Below the pieces are notes generated by a model that was given only the letters and a program-made list of their open reading frames with translations, ran no database searches and was not told the DNA's origin. A program made the position numbers and the translations under genes. Positions 11,153 to 36,959 of a stretch of DNA of 64,000 nucleotides are shown here, piece after piece (position 1 is the first letter of the stretch; every line of letters starts with the position of its first letter). Where the stretch lies: contig JAFRPF010000031.1 in the NCBI GenBank assembly GCA_017429285.1, forward strand, positions 11,161 through 75,160. The letters run 5' to 3'. Origin of the DNA: Bacilli bacterium. GTDB taxonomy: Bacteria > Bacillota_I > Bacilli_A > RFN20 > CAG-826.

Positions 11153-11237
11153 GCACCTATGGCGGAACTGGCAGACGCGCTAGACTTAGGATCTAGTGGG
11201 GCAACCCGTACAAGTTCGATTCTTGCTAGGTGCACCA
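11153..11237 (+). tRNA. tRNA-Leu (anticodon UAG)
   Basis: Hand-folded cloverleaf: acceptor GCACCTA/TAGGTGC, anticodon stem CTAGA/TCTAG with loop CTTAGGA, long variable arm, T-arm GCAAG/CTTGC, encoded CCA. Confidence 0.85.
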
Positions 11238-11247
11238 ATTTATAAAT

Positions 11248-11272
11248 AAACACCCCATAGGGGTGTTTTTAT
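11248..11272. terminator. Bidirectional intrinsic terminator between convergent tRNA genes
   Basis: Hairpin ACACCCC-TAT-GGGGTGT followed by TTTTT on + strand and a T-rich stretch on the minus strand. Confidence 0.5.
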
Positions 11273-11276
11273 CATC

Positions 11277-11352
11277 TGGTGCCGTCTATCGGAATCGAAC
11301 CAACAACCTATCGATTACAAATCGATTGCTCTGCCAATTGAGCTAAGACGGC
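11277..11352 (-). tRNA. tRNA-Thr (anticodon UGU)
   Basis: Reverse complement folds: acceptor GCCGTCT/AGACGGC, anticodon stem ATCGA/TCGAT with loop TTTGTAA, T-loop TTCGATT, CCA encoded. Confidence 0.85.
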
Positions 11353-11358
11353 GTTTCC

Positions 11359-11433
11359 TGGTGGACACTACAGGGATCGAACCTGTGACCTCTTCCGTGT
11401 GAAGGAAGCGTTCTCCCGCTGAACTAAGTGTCC
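11359..11433 (-). tRNA. tRNA-Val (anticodon CAC)
   Basis: Reverse complement folds: acceptor GGACACT/AGTGTCC, anticodon stem CTTCC/GGAAG with loop TTCACAC, T-loop TTCGATC, CCA encoded. Confidence 0.8.
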
Positions 11434-16142: not shown

Positions 16143-16219
16143 TGGTGGGCCTAATTGGACTTGAACCAGCGACCTCGCCCTTATCAGGGGCGCGCTCTAA
16201 CCAACTGAGCTATAGGCCC
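16143..16219 (-). tRNA. tRNA-Ile (anticodon GAU)
   Basis: Reverse complement GGGCCTATAGCTCAGTTGGTTAGAGCGCGCCCCTGATAAGGGCGAGGTCGCTGGTTCAAGTCCAATTAGGCCCACCA folds into a canonical cloverleaf. Confidence 0.85.
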
Positions 16220-24730: not shown

Positions 24731-26482
24731 TTAATCAGGATATTTTTCTCTCTTAGAATTGTAGTGAGTGTGCAATAATTTTTCACTTAATTCAGATAGA
24801 GGTTCACCAAGGAATTCTTTATATAATTTTTGAATATCCTTGTTATTGTGTGATTGTCTAATAACTTGTCTTTCATCTTCGCTATATAAAACACTCGCAC
24901 GTTTTTGACGATAAGTATCTAAGATATCATCATCTTCATTTGGTAATAAGGATGGTTGAACATATGGTTGACCACCACCGTTAATACATCCACCTGGGCA
25001 ACCCATAATTTCGATAAAGGCATATGGAGATTTACCTTCTTTAACTTCTTGGACTAATTTAGAAGCGTTCTTCATACCTGAAGCAATCGCTACTTTAATA
25101 CCAAGTTCTTTAATTTCAGCTTCTCTAACGCCTTCTAAACCACGGACATTTTCAAATACGATTCTATCGTATTCTTTACCGGTTAAGACAAAGTAAGCAG
25201 TTCTTAAAGCCGCTTCCATAACACCACCGGTAACACCGAAGATAACACCAGCACCAGAATAATCGCCTAATAAGTCAGCATCAAACTCTTCTTCTGGTAA
25301 TTTTTGCCAGTTAATACCGGAACGTTTGATCATCTTAGCTAATTCACGTGTCGTTAAAACAGCGTCGACATCTTGATCCATTTCTGGACGTTGTCTTTCA
25401 TATTTTTTCGCCGTACAAGGCATAATGGAAACCACAAAAATATCTTTAGGATCTAAATCATGTTTCTTAGCGAAATAAGATTTAATAATCGCACCCACCA
25501 TCATATGTGGGGATTTACATGTTGAGATATGTGGAATGATTTCTGGATAGAAATATTCCATATAGTTAATCCAACCTGGTGAGCAGGATGTGATTTGTGG
25601 TAAAACACCTTTGTTCTTAATTCTATGAATTAATTCATAGCCTTCTTCCATGATGGTTAAGTCCGCGCCGAAGATTGTGTCAAAGACACGATAGAAACCT
25701 AAACGATGTAAGGCAGCAACCATTTTACCAGTACCAGGAGTACCAATCTTTTCACCAAATTCTTCAGCGATAGCAGCTCTGACAGCCGGAGCGGTTTGAA
25801 CAATAACTTTCTTACCAGCTCTAAAGGCTTCATCAACCTTTTCAATTTCACTATGCTCCATTAACGCACCGACAGGACAGACGTTAACGCATTGTCCACA
25901 TTGCATACATGGGACATTAGCGAAGCTTCTATTTTGGACAGGACCAACAATGGTCTTAAAGCCACGATTTTCAAAACCTAAGATGGAAATACCTTGGGCT
26001 TCTTTACATCTTTCAATACATCTACCACATAAAATACATTTTGCCGTATTTCTGATGATGCCAGGAGCGACTTCGTCATAGGTCTTTTCTGTGGTTTGAC
26101 CAACATATTTACCTTCTCTAGCACCGACCATTTCCGCGACATGTAATAATTCGCAGTGTCCATTTTTTGGACATTGTAAGCAGTTTTTCTCGTGGTTAGA
26201 GAGGATTAATTCCACACTAGCTCTACGAGCTTCCACGGCTTTTGGTGAAGAAATAGAGATTTCCATTCCTTCATTGACTGGATAAACGCATGAGGCACAT
26301 AATCCACGAGCACCTTTAACTTCCACTAAACAAACACGGCAGCTTGCTCTAGAGCATTTACCGTGGTTAAAAGCACATAAGGAAGGGATTTCATAGCCGC
26401 ATTTACGGCATGCTTCTAAGACGGTCAAAGAATTATCAACTTGATAATCGCGACCTTCGATTTTGATATTTACTAAAGCCAT
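24731..26482 (-). CDS. hydA: [FeFe]-hydrogenase catalytic subunit with N-terminal 2Fe-2S and 4Fe-4S ferredoxin domains
   Basis: 583 aa; H-cluster motifs TSCSPGW (L1), MPCTAKKYE (L2), EIMGCPGGCINGGGQP (L3); N-terminal Cys clusters. Confidence 0.85.
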   Translation of the reverse strand: MALVNIKIEGRDYQVDNSLTVLEACRKCGYEIPSLCAFNHGKCSRASCRVCLVEVKGARGLCASCVYPVNEGMEISISSPKAVEARRASVELILSNHEKNCLQCPKNGHCELLHVAEMVGAREGKYVGQTTEKTYDEVAPGIIRNTAKCILCGRCIERCKEAQGISILGFENRGFKTIVGPVQNRSFANVPCMQCGQCVNVCPVGALMEHSEIEKVDEAFRAGKKVIVQTAPAVRAAIAEEFGEKIGTPGTGKMVAALHRLGFYRVFDTIFGADLTIMEEGYELIHRIKNKGVLPQITSCSPGWINYMEYFYPEIIPHISTCKSPHMMVGAIIKSYFAKKHDLDPKDIFVVSIMPCTAKKYERQRPEMDQDVDAVLTTRELAKMIKRSGINWQKLPEEEFDADLLGDYSGAGVIFGVTGGVMEAALRTAYFVLTGKEYDRIVFENVRGLEGVREAEIKELGIKVAIASGMKNASKLVQEVKEGKSPYAFIEIMGCPGGCINGGGQPYVQPSLLPNEDDDILDTYRQKRASVLYSEDERQVIRQSHNNKDIQKLYKEFLGEPLSELSEKLLHTHYNSKREKYPD

Positions 26483-26496
26483 AATCTTTCTCCTCC

Positions 26497-28389
26497 TTAT
26501 CTTTTAACAATCGCGCCGAATTTACATCCAGCCATACAGCTACCACATTTCACACACTTATTTGGATCGATGTGATGGACAAATTTATTTGGAATTTTCG
26601 CTGGTTGATCAGTAGGTGTAATACAACCAACTGGGCAGTTTCTTGCACATAATGTACAACCCATACATTTCTCTGGAAGAATATAGTATTCCATCATATT
26701 TTTACAAACATGAGCAGGACATTTATGATCCTTAACATGAGCTTCATATTCTTCTGGGAAAGCTTTCATCGTGGAAAGAATTGGGTTAGTCGCGGTTTGG
26801 CCTAAAGCGCATAAGGAGTTAGATTGAATGAATTTGGATAATTCTTTTAAATCTTCTAAATCCTTTTCTTCGCCTTTGCCATCGCAGATCTTGGTTAAGA
26901 TGTCTAAACATCTTCTGGTACCAATACGACATGGAGAACATTTACCACATGATTCATCGCAGATAAATGTCATATAGAATTTAGCGACGTCCACCATACA
27001 GTTATCTTCATCCATGACAATGGCACCACCAGAACCCATCATACTTCCAGCGGCTACTAAGCTACCAAAGTCGATTGGTGTATCTAAGTCTTTTTCGGTT
27101 AAACAACCACCAGATGGACCACCTGTTTGAATGGCTTTAAATTTCTTACCACCAGGGATACCACCACCGATATCATAGATTAATTGTCTTAAAGTAGTTC
27201 CCATTGGAACTTCAACTAAGCCAACGTTATTCACTTTGCCACCTAAAGCAAAGACTTTTGTACCTTTAGTGTCATCTGTACCGATACTAGCGAATTTCTC
27301 CCATCCTTCTCTTAAGATGAACGGAACACACGCTAATGTTTCGACGTTATTAACGACAGATGGATGTCCCCATAAACCCTTCACCGCCGGGAATGGAGGA
27401 CGAGGACGCGGCATACCACGTTTACCTTCAATAGAATTGATTAAGGCAGTTTCTTCACCACATACGAAGGCGCCTGCACCTAATCTAATATGACAACGGA
27501 ATGAGAAGTCTGTACCTAAGATGTGATCACCTAAAATACCAATTTCTTCTAATTCCTTAATCGCTTTTGCTAAACGTTTAACGGCGATTGGATATTCCGC
27601 TCTGACGTAGAAATAACCATCATTTGCGCCAATCGCATAACCAGCGATCATCATACCTTCGATAACCGCACATGGATTTCCTTCAATAATAGAACGATCC
27701 ATAAAGGCTCCTGGGTCACCTTCGTCACCATTACAAATCATGTATTTTGGTTCGTCAGTGTCAGGAACAAATGACCACTTTCTTCCTGTTGGGAAGCCAG
27801 CGCCACCTCTACCTCTTAATCCAGATTTTAAGACTTCATCGATGACTTCTTTTCTGGACATATGTAAGGCTCTATTTAAGCCTTGGAAAGCACCATTACC
27901 GATCGCTTCTTCAATATCTTCTGGATTGATTTCACCATTACCATGTAAAGCGATATCTCTTCTTTGTAATTTATAGAAGTTAATATCGTGTTGTTTTTGT
28001 ACATGTTCTTTAGTTTGAGGATCAACAAATAATAATCTGGTAACGATTTCGTTATTTAAGATATCTTTTTCAAAGATTTCTTCCGCATCAGATGGTTTCA
28101 CTTTTGTGTACAAGGTTTCTTCTGGGAAGATCTTAACGAATGGGCCTTGAGAACAGAAACCGAAACATCCAACGATGTTGGCGGTCACTTTATCTTCTAA
28201 ACCATTCTTTTTAATTAATTCTTGGAATTTTTCTAAGGTCACTTGGCTGTCCGCGGATAAACAACCGGTACCACCGCAGACGACGATCGCTTTATGACCG
28301 GGTTCACAGTGGAATTTCTTTTGCAAACAACTACCGCAGTGGTTAAATCTCTCTTGGAGTTCTTTTTCATTATTAATACGATTCATCAT
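26497..28389 (-). CDS. hydB: Hydrogenase NAD(P)-binding flavoprotein subunit (NuoF-like, HydB/HndC)
   Basis: 630 aa; N-terminal thioredoxin-like 2Fe-2S module, FMN/NADH site GRGGAGFPTGRKW, C-terminal two 4Fe-4S motifs. Confidence 0.8.
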   Translation of the reverse strand: MMNRINNEKELQERFNHCGSCLQKKFHCEPGHKAIVVCGGTGCLSADSQVTLEKFQELIKKNGLEDKVTANIVGCFGFCSQGPFVKIFPEETLYTKVKPSDAEEIFEKDILNNEIVTRLLFVDPQTKEHVQKQHDINFYKLQRRDIALHGNGEINPEDIEEAIGNGAFQGLNRALHMSRKEVIDEVLKSGLRGRGGAGFPTGRKWSFVPDTDEPKYMICNGDEGDPGAFMDRSIIEGNPCAVIEGMMIAGYAIGANDGYFYVRAEYPIAVKRLAKAIKELEEIGILGDHILGTDFSFRCHIRLGAGAFVCGEETALINSIEGKRGMPRPRPPFPAVKGLWGHPSVVNNVETLACVPFILREGWEKFASIGTDDTKGTKVFALGGKVNNVGLVEVPMGTTLRQLIYDIGGGIPGGKKFKAIQTGGPSGGCLTEKDLDTPIDFGSLVAAGSMMGSGGAIVMDEDNCMVDVAKFYMTFICDESCGKCSPCRIGTRRCLDILTKICDGKGEEKDLEDLKELSKFIQSNSLCALGQTATNPILSTMKAFPEEYEAHVKDHKCPAHVCKNMMEYYILPEKCMGCTLCARNCPVGCITPTDQPAKIPNKFVHHIDPNKCVKCGSCMAGCKFGAIVKR

Positions 28390-28871
28390 TAAGCCTCCAT
28401 AGCGCGATATTCTGCAATAATGTTTTTAACATTATCAACTTTCACTTGTGGATAAACTTTGCCGTTAATACTAACAGCGGGAGCGACCGCACAAGCACCG
28501 ATACAACGTAAGACGTCAATTGTGAATAAGCCGTCTGGGGTTGTTTCACCTGGTTTGATGTTTAATAGTTCCGCAAATTTATCGAGTACTAAATTGCTAC
28601 CCTTAACATAGCAAGCAGTACCTAAACAGACACCAACAACATATTTGCCTTTAGGTGTCATAGAGAAAAAGGAATAAAATGTCACAACACCATAGATTTC
28701 ACTAACTGGTACACCGGTTAATTTACTGACTAATTCTTGAACTTCTAAAGGAATATAACCATATTCTTTTTGAATGTCTTCAAGAATCATCATCGTGGAT
28801 GTTGGTTCATCTTTATACCTTTCTACAATTTCTGTAATAAGTTTTACAGCTTGAGGTTGTAATTTTGCCAT
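28389..28871 (-). CDS. hydC: Hydrogenase 2Fe-2S subunit (NuoE-like, HydC/HndA)
   Basis: 160 aa; NuoE-type Cys pattern CLGTACYVKGS...RCIGACAVAP; start of hydB overlaps its stop by 1 nt. Confidence 0.8.
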   Translation of the reverse strand: MAKLQPQAVKLITEIVERYKDEPTSTMMILEDIQKEYGYIPLEVQELVSKLTGVPVSEIYGVVTFYSFFSMTPKGKYVVGVCLGTACYVKGSNLVLDKFAELLNIKPGETTPDGLFTIDVLRCIGACAVAPAVSINGKVYPQVKVDNVKNIIAEYRAMEA

Positions 28872-31330: not shown

Positions 31331-33700
31331 ATGCTAAAAATTTTAAAAAGAAGCGGAAACGTCGAACCGTTTGACATCAAAAAAATCGAAAGAGCGATAG
31401 AAAAAGCATTCTTCGCTGAACACAAAGTTTATACACCAGAGGTCATTGAAATGTTAGCACTTAGAACAGTGGCTATTTTTAATGGCAAGGCGAAAAACGA
31501 AACTATTGGAGTGGAAGATGTTCAAGACGCTGTGGAAGTAGCCTTGATCCAAGCCGGTTTTGTGGATGTAGCAAAAAGTTACATTATCTATCGTAAACAA
31601 CATCAAAATTTAAGAGAACTTAAAACCACAAACTTAGATTATAAGAATGTTGTTAATAACTATTTAAAAATTAATGACTGGAGAGTTAAGGAAAACTCCA
31701 CTGTTACCTATTCTGTGGGTGGCTTAATTCTTTCTAACTCTGGTGCAGTCACCGCTAACTACTGGTTAAGTGAAATATATGATAAGGAAATCGCGGACGC
31801 GCATAGAAATGCTGATATCCACATCCATGACTTATCTATGTTAACTGGTTATTGTGCTGGTTGGTCATTAAAACAATTAATTCAAGAAGGTTTAGGTGGT
31901 GTCGTTGGAAAGATTACCTCCGCTCCAGCTGCTCACTTATCCACTTTATGTAATCAAATGGTTAACTTCTTAGGTATCATGCAAAATGAATGGGCTGGTG
32001 CACAAGCTTTTTCATCCTTTGATACCTATCTAGCCCCATTTGTGAAAGTTGATAACTTAACGTATAAACAAGTTAAACAATGTATTCAATCCTTCATCTA
32101 TGGTGTTAATACACCATCCAGATGGGGTACTCAAGCACCATTTACCAATATCACCCTTGACTGGGTTGTTCCAAACGATATGGCGGAACTTAACTGTATC
32201 GTCGGTGGTAAAGAAATGCCATTTAAATATAAAGATTGTGTCGAAGAAATGGCGATGGTTAACAAAGCCTTCATCGAAATCATGATTGAAGGTGACGCTA
32301 ACGGAAGAGGTTTCCAATATCCGATCCCAACTTATTCCATCACCAAGACATTTGACTGGTCAGAAACTGAAAATAACAAGTTATTATTCGAAATGACCGC
32401 CAAATACGGTACTCCATATTTCTCTAACTACATCAATTCCGATATGGAACCAAGTGATGTAAGAAGTATGTGCTGCCGTTTAAGATTAGACTTAAGAGAA
32501 TTAAGAAAGAAATCAGGTGGTTTCTTCGGTTCTGGCGAATCTACCGGTTCTATCGGTGTTGTCACTATCAATATGCCAAGAATCGCTTATTTAGCCACTG
32601 ATGAAGCTGATTTCTATCAAAGATTAGATCATATTATGGATATTTCTGCTCGTTCACTTAAAGTGAAGAGAAATACCGTTACCGCTTTATTGGAAGCCGG
32701 TTTATATCCATATACAAAGAGATATTTAGGCACATTTAATAACCACTTCTCCACCATCGGTTTAGTGGGTATGAATGAAGCTTGCTTAAATGCTCGTTGG
32801 TTAAAGAAGGATTTAACACATAAAGAATCCATTCAATTTACTAAAGATGTGCTCAATCACATGAGAAGTAAATTATCTGATTACCAAGAATTATATGGTG
32901 ATTTATATAACTTAGAAGCTACCCCTGCGGAATCCACCGCTTTCCGTTTAGCTAAACACGATAAAGCTAAATTCCCAGATATCATTACCGCTAATGATGA
33001 AGGTATGACTCCATATTATACAAATTCATCTCACTTACCAGTCGGATTTACCGAAGATGTTTATAAAGCCTTAGACATCCAAGATGGTTTACAAACTTTA
33101 TATACATCAGGAACAGTTTTCCACTGCTTCTTAGGTCAAAAATTACCTTCTTGGAAATCTTGTATGAATTTCGTTAGAAAGATCGCGGAAAACTATCATA
33201 TTCCTTATTACACAATGTCACCAACATACTCTGTATGTAAAGAACATGGCTATTTAGTTGGTGAACAATTCGTTTGTCCACACTGTGGTCAAAAAGCAGA
33301 AGTTTATTCCCGTATTACCGGTTACTATCGTCCAATTCAAAACTGGAACGATGGTAAAACCGCTGAATACCATAACCGTAAAGAATATGAACCAGAGAAT
33401 TCTCATTTAACACATTCTTTAATTAATGAAGAATGCGCACAAGAAGAAAAGACAAGCGACGAATCATTAAATGAAATCTTATTATTCGCCACAAAAACTT
33501 GTCCAAACTGTAAGATGGCCAAAATGCTTTTAGATAAAGCTGGTATCCACTATACAGTTATCGATGCTGAAGATAATAAAGAAAAGACTTTAAAATATAA
33601 AGTCAATAAAGCACCAACCCTTATCGTTCCTAACGAAAATGGCTACGATGTCTTTGAAAACGCATCTAACATCAAAGGATATATAGAAAGTATCAACTAA
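31331..33700 (+). CDS. nrdD: Anaerobic ribonucleoside-triphosphate reductase (class III RNR) with C-terminal fused glutaredoxin/NrdH-like CxxC domain
   Basis: 789 aa. N-terminal ATP-cone. Zn site C-x14-CPHC. Glycyl-radical motif RITGYYRP. Then an extra ~90 aa thioredoxin-fold tail: TKTCPNCKMAKMLLDKAGIHYTVIDAEDNKEK...APTLIVPNENG. Confidence 0.9.
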   Translation: MLKILKRSGNVEPFDIKKIERAIEKAFFAEHKVYTPEVIEMLALRTVAIFNGKAKNETIGVEDVQDAVEVALIQAGFVDVAKSYIIYRKQHQNLRELKTTNLDYKNVVNNYLKINDWRVKENSTVTYSVGGLILSNSGAVTANYWLSEIYDKEIADAHRNADIHIHDLSMLTGYCAGWSLKQLIQEGLGGVVGKITSAPAAHLSTLCNQMVNFLGIMQNEWAGAQAFSSFDTYLAPFVKVDNLTYKQVKQCIQSFIYGVNTPSRWGTQAPFTNITLDWVVPNDMAELNCIVGGKEMPFKYKDCVEEMAMVNKAFIEIMIEGDANGRGFQYPIPTYSITKTFDWSETENNKLLFEMTAKYGTPYFSNYINSDMEPSDVRSMCCRLRLDLRELRKKSGGFFGSGESTGSIGVVTINMPRIAYLATDEADFYQRLDHIMDISARSLKVKRNTVTALLEAGLYPYTKRYLGTFNNHFSTIGLVGMNEACLNARWLKKDLTHKESIQFTKDVLNHMRSKLSDYQELYGDLYNLEATPAESTAFRLAKHDKAKFPDIITANDEGMTPYYTNSSHLPVGFTEDVYKALDIQDGLQTLYTSGTVFHCFLGQKLPSWKSCMNFVRKIAENYHIPYYTMSPTYSVCKEHGYLVGEQFVCPHCGQKAEVYSRITGYYRPIQNWNDGKTAEYHNRKEYEPENSHLTHSLINEECAQEEKTSDESLNEILLFATKTCPNCKMAKMLLDKAGIHYTVIDAEDNKEKTLKYKVNKAPTLIVPNENGYDVFENASNIKGYIESIN

Positions 33701-33701
33701 T

Positions 33702-34622
33702 ATGTACGATGTCATCATTATCGGTGGCGGTCCTGCTGGAATGGCAGTCGCTTTAAATACACTTAGAAATGGACGCACCTGTCTCCTTTTAGAAAAGGAG
33801 AATTTTGGTGGTCAAATGGCGACTTCTCCAAAACTAGAAAACATTCCAGGCATCAAAGCGATATCCGGAATCGAATATAGCGATAAGATGTTTGAACAGA
33901 TCACCGATATGGGGGCGGAGTTCGAACTTGAAGAAGTAGAATCTATCACAAAAGAAGATGAAAAATTCATCGTTAAAACTAATTACAACACCTATGAATC
34001 TTGGACTGTTGTTTTAGCAAATGGTTGTCATCATCGTAAGATGAACTTACCACATGAAGATGATTTAGTGGGTAAAGGTGTCTCTTATTGCGCAGTTTGT
34101 GATGGAGCCTTCTATAAAGGTCAAACCACAAACATCATCGGAGATGCTAATACAGCGTTACAATATGCTTTATTACTAAGTAATTATTGCCCCACTGTTA
34201 ATGTCTTCGCTTTATTTGATCATCTATTTGGAGATCAAATCTTAATTCAAAGAATTAATGATAATCCAAATATCAATGTTAGATATAATGTTTCCTTACA
34301 AGAATTCATCGGTGAAGAAGAATTAAAAGCTTTACGTTTCTTTGATAAAACAAATAATCAAGAATTCACCGTTGAAACAAACAACGTCTTCGTCGCTATT
34401 GGTCAAATTCCATGTAATGAACCCTTTAAAGATTTAGTGGAATTAGACAATAAAGGGTTTGTCATCACTAATGACAATATGGAAACATCTTGTCCAGGTG
34501 TTTACGCTGTAGGCGACACAAGAAAAAAAGACATCCGCCAAGTAGTAACTGCTTTGGGTGATGCCAGTGTGGCTAGTGTCTATATCAATAGATATTTACA
34601 ATCATTAAATAGAAATGACTAA
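33702..34622 (+). CDS. Thioredoxin-reductase-like flavoprotein (TrxB family fold; NADPH-binding motifs degenerate)
   Basis: 306 aa. FAD motif IIGGGPAGMAVA. Redox-active CAVCDG. The second GxGxxA motif reads IGDANTA and the HRRD motif reads DHLFGD. Start codon is 1 nt after the nrdD stop. Confidence 0.7.
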   Translation: MYDVIIIGGGPAGMAVALNTLRNGRTCLLLEKENFGGQMATSPKLENIPGIKAISGIEYSDKMFEQITDMGAEFELEEVESITKEDEKFIVKTNYNTYESWTVVLANGCHHRKMNLPHEDDLVGKGVSYCAVCDGAFYKGQTTNIIGDANTALQYALLLSNYCPTVNVFALFDHLFGDQILIQRINDNPNINVRYNVSLQEFIGEEELKALRFFDKTNNQEFTVETNNVFVAIGQIPCNEPFKDLVELDNKGFVITNDNMETSCPGVYAVGDTRKKDIRQVVTALGDASVASVYINRYLQSLNRND

Positions 34623-34643
34623 AGGATTGCTTCGGCAATTCTT

Positions 34644-34895
34644 TTATTTATATAAATTCTTTAATCTTTCGTTGGGTTCTGGAGGATTGTCCATTAGTTC
34701 TAAAAACAAATCTCTCTCATTATTCTCTAAAATAATGGATTGATTTCTCATATCGTTTCTAACTTGTTTCATCATTGCATCATAAATATAGGATGGTAAT
34801 GTTTGATGCTTTATATCCGCAGCCATATTTAAAAACTCTTTCTCGTTATCAGAAAGATAAATATTTATTTCATTTGTCTTTTTAAAAATAGCCAT
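34644..34895 (-). CDS. Small hypothetical protein (possible ribbon-helix-helix/DUF1778-like fold)
   Basis: 83 aa, no Cys; N-terminal beta-strand-like INIYLSDNEKEFLNMAA; immediately downstream of nrdG on the same strand. Confidence 0.3.
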   Translation of the reverse strand: MAIFKKTNEINIYLSDNEKEFLNMAADIKHQTLPSYIYDAMMKQVRNDMRNQSIILENNERDLFLELMDNPPEPNERLKNLYK

Positions 34896-34945
34896 GGAAT
34901 TTCTCCATAGCTATTATAACATTTATATCGATAATTTCACGCTTA

Positions 34946-35638
34946 TTAGTAGCCTCTTAAATTAACAGAGTGAATAGTTTCGCTTAATATATCTTTAAAA
35001 TGTTCGGCTTTTTCTTTACTCACTTCGTGAAAACCATGAGCGATGCAACTTTCACGATCCACATATTTTTGAAGATACATTCTTTTAGCCCCTTTAATTA
35101 ATTGGGCCATTTCTTTAATATCTTCTTCATCATGAAATTCATCGATGATTGTGGTTCTAAATTCATATTCATATGGCGAATTAATTAAAAAATTAATTGT
35201 TTCTTTAATCTTATCCATATAAACATTTTTAGCGCCTGCGGTTAGAGGATATTTTTTCTCGCTATTTTTAATATCCATCGCTACATAATCGATTAATTTA
35301 TTTTCAAATAAATATTTCACTAATTCTGGGTTAGTGCCATTAGTGTCTAATTTCACTAAATAACCTAAATCTTTAATCTGTTTTATCTTTTCCACTAAAT
35401 CGGGCATTAAAGTGGGTTCACCACCACTCACCACAACGGCATCAATTAAACCTTTTCTTTGTCTTAAATAGGCTAAAATATCATCAAAAGGAATAAAAGT
35501 ATCCGCTTCTAAGACTGTTTGTCCGTTATGACAAAAAGGGCATCTAAAATTGCAAGCTTTAGAAAATAAGACAACAGCAACTTTGTCTTCATAATCTAAT
35601 AATGAAAATTTATCTATTCCTACAAAGTCCACGGACAT
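34946..35638 (-). CDS. nrdG: Anaerobic ribonucleoside-triphosphate reductase activating protein (radical SAM)
   Basis: 230 aa; CNFRCPFCHN radical-SAM CxxxCxxC cluster near the N-terminus; GGEP motif. Confidence 0.85.
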   Translation of the reverse strand: MSVDFVGIDKFSLLDYEDKVAVVLFSKACNFRCPFCHNGQTVLEADTFIPFDDILAYLRQRKGLIDAVVVSGGEPTLMPDLVEKIKQIKDLGYLVKLDTNGTNPELVKYLFENKLIDYVAMDIKNSEKKYPLTAGAKNVYMDKIKETINFLINSPYEYEFRTTIIDEFHDEEDIKEMAQLIKGAKRMYLQKYVDRESCIAHGFHEVSKEKAEHFKDILSETIHSVNLRGY

Positions 35639-35701: not shown

Positions 35702-36181
35702 ATGATTAAAAGTAATATTTCCTGGGATGAATATTTTATGGGCATCGCTGTGCTCTCCAGCATGCGTAGTAAGGATCCCAACACCAAAGTGGGAGCGTGT
35801 ATTGTGGATGAAAATCATAAAGTGGTTTCCATCGGTTATAACGGCATGCCATGTGGATGCGATGAAAATCAATTATCTTGGAATAAAGGTACTGGTTTAG
35901 ATAGCAAATATCTTTATGTTTGCCACGCTGAATTTAACGCTATTTTAAATACCAGAAATGGTACTTCTGCATTAAAGGGTTGTACCGTTTATGTCACATT
36001 ATTCCCATGCAATGAGTGCACAAAAGCTATTATTCAAACCGGAATTAAAGAAGTTGTTTATATTTCTAATAAATATGAAACCACGACTGAAACTCAAGCT
36101 TCGTTAAGAATGTTAACACTCGCTGGAGTCAAGATTCGTCATTACGAAGGAAGAATTCCTGAAATTAATTATGACCGTTAA
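35702..36181 (+). CDS. comEB: dCMP deaminase (ComEB-like cytidine/deoxycytidylate deaminase)
   Basis: 159 aa; zinc-binding HAEFNA and PCNECTKAI motifs. Confidence 0.8.
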   Translation: MIKSNISWDEYFMGIAVLSSMRSKDPNTKVGACIVDENHKVVSIGYNGMPCGCDENQLSWNKGTGLDSKYLYVCHAEFNAILNTRNGTSALKGCTVYVTLFPCNECTKAIIQTGIKEVVYISNKYETTTETQASLRMLTLAGVKIRHYEGRIPEINYDR

Positions 36182-36959
36182 AGAATACGTTAACTTTAGA
36201 AAAGACGAGATGAAAAATCTCGTTTTAAAAATGGATAAAAAACCATGCATCGCGATTGTCCAAGTTAATGAAGACGCTGGTAGTAATGCTTATGTTAAAG
36301 GGAAATTAAAAGACGCGAATGAATTAGGTATAAATGCTGATTTAATCAAATTACCTTTAAATACTAAACAGGAAGAATTATTAGAAATCATTGATCAATT
36401 AAATAAAGATAAAGTTCATGACGGCTTTATCGTTCAAATGCCTTTACCTAAAGGTATAGATGAAGAAACTATCAAATTAGCGGTATCTCCTAATAAAGAT
36501 GTTGATGGTTTCCATCCATTAAGTAAATTATCTCCATGTACCCCAAAAGGTATCATGAATTATTTACATCATGAAAACATCCCCATCTTAGGTAAGAACG
36601 CAGTTGTTATCGGAAGAAGTAATATCGTTGGTAAACCGATGGCGAAACTCTTATTAAAAGAAAGTGCGAATGTCACTGTTTTACATAGTAAAACTTCATT
36701 TGAGGATATGGCTAGATATATCGAAAACGCCGATATCATTGTTATCGCGATTGGAAAAAAGCACTTCTTAGATAATAAATTTAAATATAAAAAATCCGCA
36801 GTCATCATAGATGTTGGTATATCTAGAGACGAATCCGGATTACATGGTGATGCTTTACCTGACTTACCTGTTTATTTACAAACACCGGTGCCAGGTGGTG
36901 TAGGACTATTAACTAGATTAGCCCTATATGAAAACCTATTAGAGCTTGTCTCTAAATAG
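36171..36959 (+). CDS. folD: Bifunctional methylenetetrahydrofolate dehydrogenase/methenyl-THF cyclohydrolase
   Basis: 262 aa; FolD blocks (..YVKGKLKD.., GFIVQMPLP, VVIGRSNIVGKPMA, PVPGGVG). Confidence 0.85.
   Translation: MTVKEYVNFRKDEMKNLVLKMDKKPCIAIVQVNEDAGSNAYVKGKLKDANELGINADLIKLPLNTKQEELLEIIDQLNKDKVHDGFIVQMPLPKGIDEETIKLAVSPNKDVDGFHPLSKLSPCTPKGIMNYLHHENIPILGKNAVVIGRSNIVGKPMAKLLLKESANVTVLHSKTSFEDMARYIENADIIVIAIGKKHFLDNKFKYKKSAVIIDVGISRDESGLHGDALPDLPVYLQTPVPGGVGLLTRLALYENLLELVSK

Follow-up and report, generated by a model that had tools for sequence, protein, structure and literature searches.

The stretch analysed here is a 64-kb window of a metagenome-assembled genome (MAG) of a Bacilli bacterium, and all coordinates below are window positions. 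It carries a gene pair that may form a private relay of reducing equivalents for DNA-precursor synthesis. The first gene, nrdD (31331..33700; this and all other features lie on the + strand unless marked), encodes a class III ribonucleoside-triphosphate reductase of 789 residues with a fused C-terminal redoxin, as identified from the open reading frame (ORF) and from Pfam and NCBIfam matches. One base separates its TAA stop codon (33698-33700) from the ATG (at 33702) of the second gene (33702..34622), which encodes a flavin adenine dinucleotide (FAD) flavoprotein of 306 residues with a thioredoxin reductase (TrxR) fold, a member of what we call the F class. A terminator-like hairpin (34621..34644; a 10-bp stem and T-rich tail, a consensus match only) closes the nrdD-flavoprotein unit. 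Beyond it, nrdG, the gene for the radical-SAM activase of NrdD, runs convergent with nrdD (34946..35638, - strand; Radical_SAM, and TIGR02495 at 197.7 bits against a cut-off of 131.15). NrdD is identical to MBR0439826.1 ('ribonucleoside triphosphate reductase') and the flavoprotein to MBR0439827.1 ('FAD-dependent oxidoreductase'). An earlier, sequence-only reading of the window had described the pair, its one-nucleotide gap and the convergent nrdG in the same way, and had missed an 83-residue ORF between the flavoprotein gene and nrdG.

The body of NrdD is that of a class III ribonucleotide reductase (RNR). An ATP-cone (residues 3-92, 31337..31606; PF03477, 76.9 bits, E=2e-21) precedes the NRDD core at residues 121-686 (PF13597, 623 bits, E=6e-187), and among the NCBIfam models the protein matched NF006126 (1113.8 bits; cut-off 548) and TIGR02487 (511 bits; cut-off 326). 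The features by which the class is recognised are all present: an NRDD barrel above threshold, a glycyl-radical motif RITGYY (R661-I-T-G664-Y-Y, residues 661-666, 33311..33328; its columns are invariant) and an nrdG activase gene. In an alignment with Thermotoga maritima NrdD (4coi), the β-A reducing cysteine C175 (31853..31855) corresponds to C125, and the finger-loop M380-C381-C382-R383 (32468..32479), of the double-cysteine type with Met, to S328-C-C-R331. E529 (32915..32917) is the counterpart of Glu495, the position by which Burnim 2022 indexes the Glu that is proposed to donate the proton. The surrounding motifs GYCAGW (C175), MCCR and NLEATPAE (E529) were found in all 44 full-length fused NrdDs collected. 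The NrdD2 type was defined by residues in Wei 2014, of which PMC4493059 and PMC9669993 give accounts, and Aurelius 2015 gives it a third Cys and a Glu, with a Met in some. Both residues occur here, the third Cys in the finger loop besides C175, and the Glu at the position of Glu495 in T. maritima and Glu438 in Neisseria bacilliformis. Judged by these residues, the window NrdD is a thioredoxin-type (NrdD2-like) class III RNR.

Behind the glycyl-radical domain, an acidic linker of about 25-30 residues (approximately residues 689-714, 33395..33472; low predicted order, with a single Cys in EECAQ) leads to a redoxin domain of thioredoxin/glutaredoxin (Trx/Grx) fold (residues 716-789, 33476..33697) with C724-P-N-C727 and a cis-Pro loop A-P-T-L. 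The Pfam Glutaredoxin model (PF00462) matched residues 716-752 with 33.3 bits, above its gathering score of 22.9, the match spanning only model positions 1-37 of 60, i.e. the N-terminal half. When a profile of 37 tails was compared with PDB sequences, it matched protein disulfide oxidoreductases (PDO) or 'glutaredoxin-like' proteins (1j08, 2ywm, 1a8l), and also small thioredoxins (2l6c and MJ0307, 1fo5) and NrdH-redoxins (4hs1, 1r7h). An AlphaFold2 (AF2) model, made from the window tail and 53 tail fragments, gave the order β-α-β-α-β-β-α with a predicted local distance difference test score (pLDDT) of ~90 over NrdD residues 716-788, and of ~50-70 in the linker (tail residues 30-55). A Foldseek search of this model against the PDB returned thioredoxins at probability 1.0, with target-normalised template modelling (TM) scores up to 0.71. 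The ORF, Pfam, AF2 and Foldseek thus agree on the extra domain that the sequence-only reading had placed after the glycyl-radical motif, and its thioredoxin-like fold was borne out. C724, C727 and the cis-Pro P761 are invariant among the tails. With APTL, the cis-Pro loop resembles the PTL of thioredoxins and not TVP, and inspection by eye showed no GGxdD and no glutathione-binding motif. Membership of the NrdH family was not reached (TIGR02194, 18.8 bits against a cut-off of 85.75). From the model, the tail is most aptly called a short redoxin of Trx/Grx fold, such as a TrxR could reduce.

The cysteines of the linker vary. Among 54 fused NrdDs, a CxC, CC or CxxC pair was present in 22, a single Cys in 15 (the window protein included) and none in 17. 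A linker Cys pair as a universal obligatory shuttle was considered and rejected, the pair being present in only 22 of the 54. Lundin 2015 describes an external cysteine pair as unknown in class III RNRs, and the fused redoxin and the facultative linker pair (22/54) both bear on that statement. We also set aside a seeming TrxR-Grx fusion (P0228), a 128-aa protein on a 529-bp ENA contig with a TrxR N-terminus and a Grx tail, as probably an assembly chimera.

The flavoprotein (Pyr_redox_2, E=3e-39) has the two-domain TrxR fold, with TM 0.8 to the TrxRs of Bacillus cereus (7aaw) and Staphylococcus aureus (4gcm). Its FAD motif (GGGPAG, of the form GxGxxG), the redox-active CxxC (C130-A-V-C133, 34089..34100, both Cys invariant) and the C-terminal GD motif are intact, which confirmed the GGGPAG and CAVC of the sequence-only reading. 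The nucleotide-binding site is altered at both of its motifs. In HMMER alignments to 7aaw and 4gcm, GGGDSA is replaced by G147-D-A-N-T-A152 (34140..34157, at the GGGxSA dinucleotide-binding position), as had been claimed, and H-R-R-D-x-x-R by A170-L-F-D-H-L-F176 (34209..34229, at the H-R-R-x-x-x-R 2'-phosphate site). The earlier statement that HRRD reads DHLFGD was off in register by three residues, ALFDHLF being the segment that aligns, and the loss of the site stands. In E. coli numbering, H175 is changed to A, R176 to L, and R177 and R181 each to F, so the three 2'-phosphate arginines and the histidine are all exchanged for hydrophobic residues. Against TIGR01292, the equivalog of NADPH-dependent TrxRs (NTRs), the protein scored 298.8 bits, below the cut-off of 343.45. 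A TrxB was counted as non-NTR in PMC10880999 when the GxGxxA and HRRxxxR motifs are both absent, and the window flavoprotein, a TrxR fold without these NADPH motifs, is such a case.

The replacements are themselves conserved. The patterns [ILV]IGD[AG]N[ST]A, xLF[DN]xxF and CxxC were kept, bar single outliers, in all 120 homologues (61-99% identity), which upheld the loss of both NADPH motifs. In a 16-sequence alignment reaching down to 61% identity, G147, D148, N150, A152, F172, C130 and C133 were invariant. Because the replacements are conserved across the 120 homologues, the motif changes are, on the sequence evidence, not degeneration, and by the same evidence the invariant Asp (D148) is apparently a new, selected feature. 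At the position of the second Gly of GxGxxA the window protein has Ala, and members of the F class carry either Ala or Gly there, which argues against a working dinucleotide site. In the AF2 model (pLDDT 85) the second Rossmann unit is still folded, with a strand at 143-146 and a helix at 150-160; GDANTA forms the loop between β1 and αA, and the ALF segment lies at the exit of β2.

The loss of exactly these motifs recalls the ferredoxin-dependent flavin TrxRs (FFTRs) of Clostridium pasteurianum and C. acetobutylicum (6gna, 6gnc) and of Gloeobacter (5j60), which lack GxGxxA and HRRxxxR and use ferredoxin. Like them, the window flavoprotein has the TrxR fold, FAD and CxxC without both NADPH motifs. 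Unlike them, with their about 288 aa, it is at 306 aa as long as an ordinary NTR, and, unlike the cyanobacterial type, it has no evident C-terminal Trp tail. Membership was judged by bit scores and Foldseek ranks. The best PDB sequence matches were Firmicute NTRs (7aaw, 218.4 bits), whereas the clostridial FFTRs scored 112.8 (6gna) and 111.3 bits (6gnc), and the Gloeobacter FFTR/DTR 132.1 bits (5j60). The Foldseek top 50 were all NTR-type TrxRs or AhpF at 26-36% identity, with no FFTR structure among them. By these measures of sequence and modelled fold, the flavoprotein appears not to be an FFTR by descent, and the parallel to FFTR-type enzymes in the sequence-only reading does not extend to ancestry, the nearest kinship being with Firmicute NADPH-TrxRs.

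The pairing of the two genes extends well beyond the window. A profile scan, with one genome per species and restricted to two peptide patterns, gave at least 80 loci. Among those listed, a Grx-tailed NrdD immediately preceded a same-strand TrxR homologue at 53 of 82 non-redundant loci, with 7-473 nt from the end of NrdD to the homologue. By their record titles the linked loci listed span Clostridia, Negativicutes and Bacilli MAGs, and include Oscillospiraceae, Acutalibacteraceae, Ruminococcus, Faecalibacterium, Faecousia, Christensenellaceae, Lachnospiraceae, Clostridiaceae, Phascolarctobacterium succinatutens and the Bacilli MAGs. Look-ups in the opposite direction, begun from fragments of the tail that lie on longer contigs, met a downstream Pyr_redox_2 gene in 3/3 (two abutting, one at 1.1 kb). 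Three related loci (L001, L003 and L007, flavoprotein 63-72% identical) have NrdD-Grx, flavoprotein and convergent nrdG as in the window, the called genes in L001 and L003 going on with dCMP deaminase and folD, and the representative of an F-class cluster at 54% identity has the same operon. The genes that flank the NrdD-TrxR pair differ between loci. That reductase, redoxin domain and NrdD constitute a dedicated unit is well supported at the level of gene organisation by the synteny at 53 loci, the 3/3 look-ups, the 1-base gap and the hairpin after the second gene. The self-contained unit proposed earlier, and the co-occurrence of fusion and neighbour in related genomes, have thus held up, and NrdD also carries the NrdD2-type residues that are associated with thioredoxin-dependent turnover.

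The TrxR homologues at the loci listed fall into three motif classes. The N class, with the canonical NADPH motifs GGGxSA and HRRD, was NrdD-linked at nine loci and unlinked at 22 with enough upstream sequence; these 22 are housekeeping NTRs of Bacilli and Lachnospiraceae, none of them NrdD-linked among the loci listed. The Q class (GGGN[ST]A and QNLxxLTGE) was NrdD-linked at 39 loci and unlinked at four with enough upstream sequence, and the F class (GD[AG]N[ST]A and xLFxxxF) was NrdD-linked at five loci and in the window. Most of the module-bearing genomes listed therefore have a partner TrxR with motifs other than those of the F class, the canonical NADPH type among them, and in this respect the earlier reading was overstated. 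An unbiased HMMER scan of 1.84 billion cluster representatives yielded ~15-20 F-like clusters (50% identity) among the best 150. In a neighbour-joining tree, a distance tree that carries no support values, the F class was monophyletic, and F and Q nested among the NrdD-linked members of the N class, with the housekeeping NTRs on a branch of their own. The nesting of the F class among NrdD-linked TrxRs that include HRRD forms points to a derived change of donor.

Two further observations concern these classes. The Q class (39 loci listed; gut Clostridia including Faecalibacterium) has HRRDxxR changed to QNLxxLT, and its nucleotide specificity is apparently uncharacterised; its motif is that of the Thermosipho africanus TrxR (7jyp), the best PDB match of a Q-class member. 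Over Bacilli MAGs, several families of Clostridia and one Negativicute (L008-L085), the NrdD cores of the Grx-fused enzymes are 70-88% identical to that of the window at the loci listed, the partner TrxRs only 36-46%. This contrast in sequence identity suggests that NrdD is under very strong constraint, or else that nrdD has spread horizontally.

We propose that nrdD and the flavoprotein gene are a two-gene unit for a private disulfide relay, whose donor is probably a low-potential carrier and not NADPH; from the sequences and by analogy with known systems, we give this reading somewhat better than an even chance. An external donor would reduce the homodimeric FAD flavoprotein, and two electrons would pass from the FAD to the C130/C133 dithiol. 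This dithiol would reduce the C724/C727 disulfide of the linker-tethered redoxin domain, and the reduced redoxin would in turn re-reduce the turnover disulfide between C175 and a finger-loop Cys (C381 or C382), with E529 as the proton donor. NrdG would put the glycyl radical on G664. The donor would be a one-electron carrier such as ferredoxin or flavodoxin, so that the flavoprotein would be like an FFTR in function and have arrived there by an independent evolutionary route. What the analysis shows is the domain layout, the folds, the loss of the motifs together with their conserved replacements, the residues of NrdD2 type and the conserved gene order; all of the electron-transfer steps and the identity of the donor are inferred.

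The donor of the F-class flavoprotein is most likely not NADPH, because both motifs are lost and their replacements conserved, the score lies below the TIGR01292 cut-off and the F class appears derived. Ferredoxin or flavodoxin is then the most plausible donor, by analogy with the FFTRs and with the NrdD3 of Methanosarcina barkeri. The latter is reportedly fed by ferredoxin through a [4Fe-4S] ferredoxin:disulfide reductase and an NrdH-like redoxin. A more far-reaching version of the proposal would make the F-class flavoproteins a third, independent lineage of pyridine-nucleotide-independent TrxRs, derived from an NrdD-dedicated NADPH reductase and, in these uncultured Bacilli and some Clostridia, wiring dNTP synthesis to reduced ferredoxin or flavodoxin by way of the redoxin domain fused to NrdD, with the N, Q and F classes as the record of repeated donor switching among gut anaerobes. 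We put this forward tentatively and would sooner expect it to fail in some part than to hold as a whole.

Several points weigh against the private low-potential relay or parts of it. The frequencies from the scan come from a sample biased by the search patterns, and cover the loci listed only. The F-like flavoprotein P0388 (L090; 303 aa, with GDANVA and ALFDHLFGE, 39% identical) has no Grx tail upstream and follows an unrelated 77-aa ORF fragment; therefore, the rebuilt nucleotide site is not confined to partners of an RNR. Genes for ferredoxin, flavodoxin or rubredoxin were linked in none of the F-class loci examined, and a motif search of the window for ferredoxin, flavodoxin and thioredoxin genes found only HydA, the HydB-like protein and one other Fe-S protein. 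The sequence-only reading had started its chain from ferredoxin or another low-potential donor; none of the present results singles out ferredoxin, and the tie it drew to a hydrogenase economy lost ground, as the nearby HydABC genes are common only to close relatives. A formal GxGxxA persists in part of the F class (GDGNSA in L008 and L019), no known ferredoxin-dependent TrxR is as close to the flavoprotein as are the NADPH-TrxRs, and the fused NrdD retains the finger-loop Met (MCCR).

The closeness to NADPH-TrxRs means that, from sequence alone, a non-canonical binding of NADH or NADPH could still be accommodated. The same relay would then operate with a flavoprotein still fed by a pyridine nucleotide, NADH being the likeliest, and the loss of the Arg residues would be a switch of specificity. 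The nearest relatives in sequence and fold are indeed all NAD(P)H-dependent low-molecular-weight TrxRs, but the end of β2 is without an acidic residue here (L171, F172), unlike NADH-specific relatives such as AhpF. Sister F-class members retain G-x-G-x-x-A as GDGNSA or GDGNTA and the second Rossmann unit is predicted to fold still; set against this, the second Gly is Ala in the window family and variable in the class, which is unusual for a working dinucleotide site, and an invariant Asp occupies the helix N-terminus that normally binds the pyrophosphate. The neighbouring Q class lends the idea some weight through the motif that it shares with the Thermosipho africanus enzyme 7jyp. Thermotoga-type TrxRs accept NADH, and a literature search on the cofactors of Thermosipho and Thermotoga TrxRs gave nothing usable. 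The published non-NTR criterion is the absence of exactly the two motifs, GxGxxA and HRRxxxR, that are missing from the window protein, and we regard continued feeding by a pyridine nucleotide as unlikely.

A second alternative turns on the finger loop. Because the Met of MCCR is retained, formate could be the reductant of the fused NrdD or an alternative one; the sequence-only reading, which had set formate aside, claimed too much. The redoxin and flavoprotein might then be a maintenance or activation system that keeps NrdD cysteines, of the active site or the zinc ribbon, reduced for NrdG, e.g. after exposure to oxygen, while formate would drive turnover. The E. coli enzyme depends on formate, and its finger-loop Met forms a thiosulfuranyl radical and supports formate chemistry; MCCR enzymes hold the components for formate and thioredoxin use alike (Burnim 2022); for a role in activation or repair, Padovani 2001 may be invoked as it is represented in a citing paper. 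E529 and the second finger-loop Cys, which are linked to formate-independent turnover, are nevertheless invariant in the fused enzymes, and a redoxin fused one-to-one with NrdD, with expression coupled through translation, is more in keeping with a reductant at substrate level than with occasional repair. We also know of no demonstration that an enzyme with both the Glu and the double Cys uses formate, and we count this against the maintenance role, which we think a shade less likely again than feeding by NADH. That the adjacency is incidental, the flavoprotein being a general TrxR-like enzyme or having an unrelated role, is highly improbable: F-like and Q-class TrxR homologues do occur without an adjacent NrdD (L014, L022, L034, L090), but same-strand, near-abutting synteny recurs at the 53 loci listed despite differing flanks and with a 1-base gap in the window, and the 22 housekeeping NTR loci form a separate branch with none NrdD-linked among those listed.

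To our knowledge, the non-formate reductant supply of class III RNRs has been settled for two enzymes only, those of N. bacilliformis and M. barkeri. The N. bacilliformis NrdD2, as presented in papers that cite the original work, is a class III RNR that works with thioredoxin, TrxR and NADPH. The window NrdD shares with it the β-A Cys, the double-Cys finger loop and the active-site Glu. In N. bacilliformis a Trx-fold protein reduces the disulfide formed at turnover and is itself reduced by a low-molecular-weight TrxR-fold flavoprotein, and the same order is proposed for the window proteins. The window system differs in that the redoxin is fused at the C-terminus of NrdD and the reductase gene lies immediately downstream, the reductase is without GxGxxA and HRRxxxR, and the finger loop reads MCCR, with Met, and not SCCR.

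With the M. barkeri NrdD3, as that system is said to be organised, the window NrdD has in common that a class III RNR has a small redoxin of its own, encoded in the same operon, and the concept in the sequence-only reading of a chain that starts from ferredoxin is that of the M. barkeri system. The M. barkeri reductase is reportedly an iron-sulfur enzyme like ferredoxin:thioredoxin reductase, whereas the window reductase is a flavoprotein. The archaeal system is also said to have the redoxin as a separate protein and an NrdD3 without the Glu and Met, whereas the window redoxin is fused.

Fusions of a redoxin to an RNR subunit have precedents. PMC6187632 (Rozman Grinberg 2018) characterised the Grx::ATP-cone::NrdB of Facklamia ignava, a class I protein that depends on glutathione, and its Table S1 lists a 'Glutaredoxin:NrdD' of Lachnospiraceae bacterium TWA4 (NrdDd), from one genome only. 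In these fusions, as in the window NrdD, a redoxin domain sits on an RNR subunit as its actual or presumed reductant. The NrdD fusion of Table S1 is listed with neither biochemistry nor a partner reductase, whereas the fusion described here is widespread and has a TrxR homologue coupled to it. Redoxins of small, Grx-like size for which TrxR and not glutathione is the reductant, as we propose for the tail, are known from NrdH with class Ib enzymes and from the PDO of Thermotoga and Pyrococcus. Unlike NrdH, the window tail has CPNC and not C(V/M)QC, is fused to the enzyme and scores far below the NrdH family cut-off.

Thioredoxin-dependent NrdD2, a ferredoxin-fed NrdD3 with an NrdH-like redoxin, Grx fusions to RNR subunits and one listed Grx:NrdD are thus already known, and in view of that entry and of the M. 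barkeri chain the earlier reading overstated the novelty in part. In the literature searched, the widespread NrdD-redoxin fusion, its TrxR neighbour and the motif classes of the reductase are undescribed; an earlier mention may exist in Wei 2014, on N. bacilliformis, or Wei 2015, on M. barkeri. The locus and about 50 related loci listed, from abundant gut and rumen Firmicutes, point to a third arrangement of reductant supply, with the redoxin in the enzyme and the reductase next door. NrdD, NrdG and one flavoprotein make a compact system in which reductant specificity can be addressed directly, and the three motif classes offer a natural series in which to follow changes of electron donor among TrxR-fold enzymes. 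Should the F class depend on ferredoxin or flavodoxin, FFTR-like chemistry would have arisen there independently, and DNA-precursor supply would be linked to the low-potential electron pool of strict anaerobes.

The remaining features of the window are set out for completeness. The Rfam scan of the window matched four tRNA genes only (11153-11433 and 16146-16219), with no riboswitch or other Rfam element near the nrd locus. An NrdR box consensus with up to three mismatches gave eight matches in the window against 8.2 expected, none of them near nrdD, and the repeats upstream of nrdD are trivial AT-rich matches. No glycyl-radical enzyme resembling pyruvate formate-lyase was found in the window, 64 kb being too small for a conclusion. 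The 83-aa ORF between the flavoprotein gene and nrdG (34644-34895, - strand) encodes an orphan TacA-like antitoxin of the ribbon-helix-helix (RHH) type (PF08681, E=2e-12). There is no space for a TacT toxin beside it, and a promoter-like site with an extended -10 lies nearby at 34940-34913. The ORF was present only in the same-species loci L004-L006, and absent from L001, L003 and L007.

At 2.5 kb from nrdD, on the - strand (24731-28871), are HydA-, HydB- and HydC-like genes, whose products are a 583-aa [FeFe]-hydrogenase-like, a 630-aa NuoF-like and a 160-aa NuoE-like protein. HydB/HydC-like genes adjoin nrdD in the related MAG locus L001, and not in L003. On the other side, nrdG is followed by genes for dCMP deaminase and FolD (35702-36959, + strand), as it is in L001, L003 and L004. 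The nrd genes, dCMP deaminase and folD together form a small conserved cluster for dNTP/dTMP supply, seen in relatives at 63-70% flavoprotein identity.

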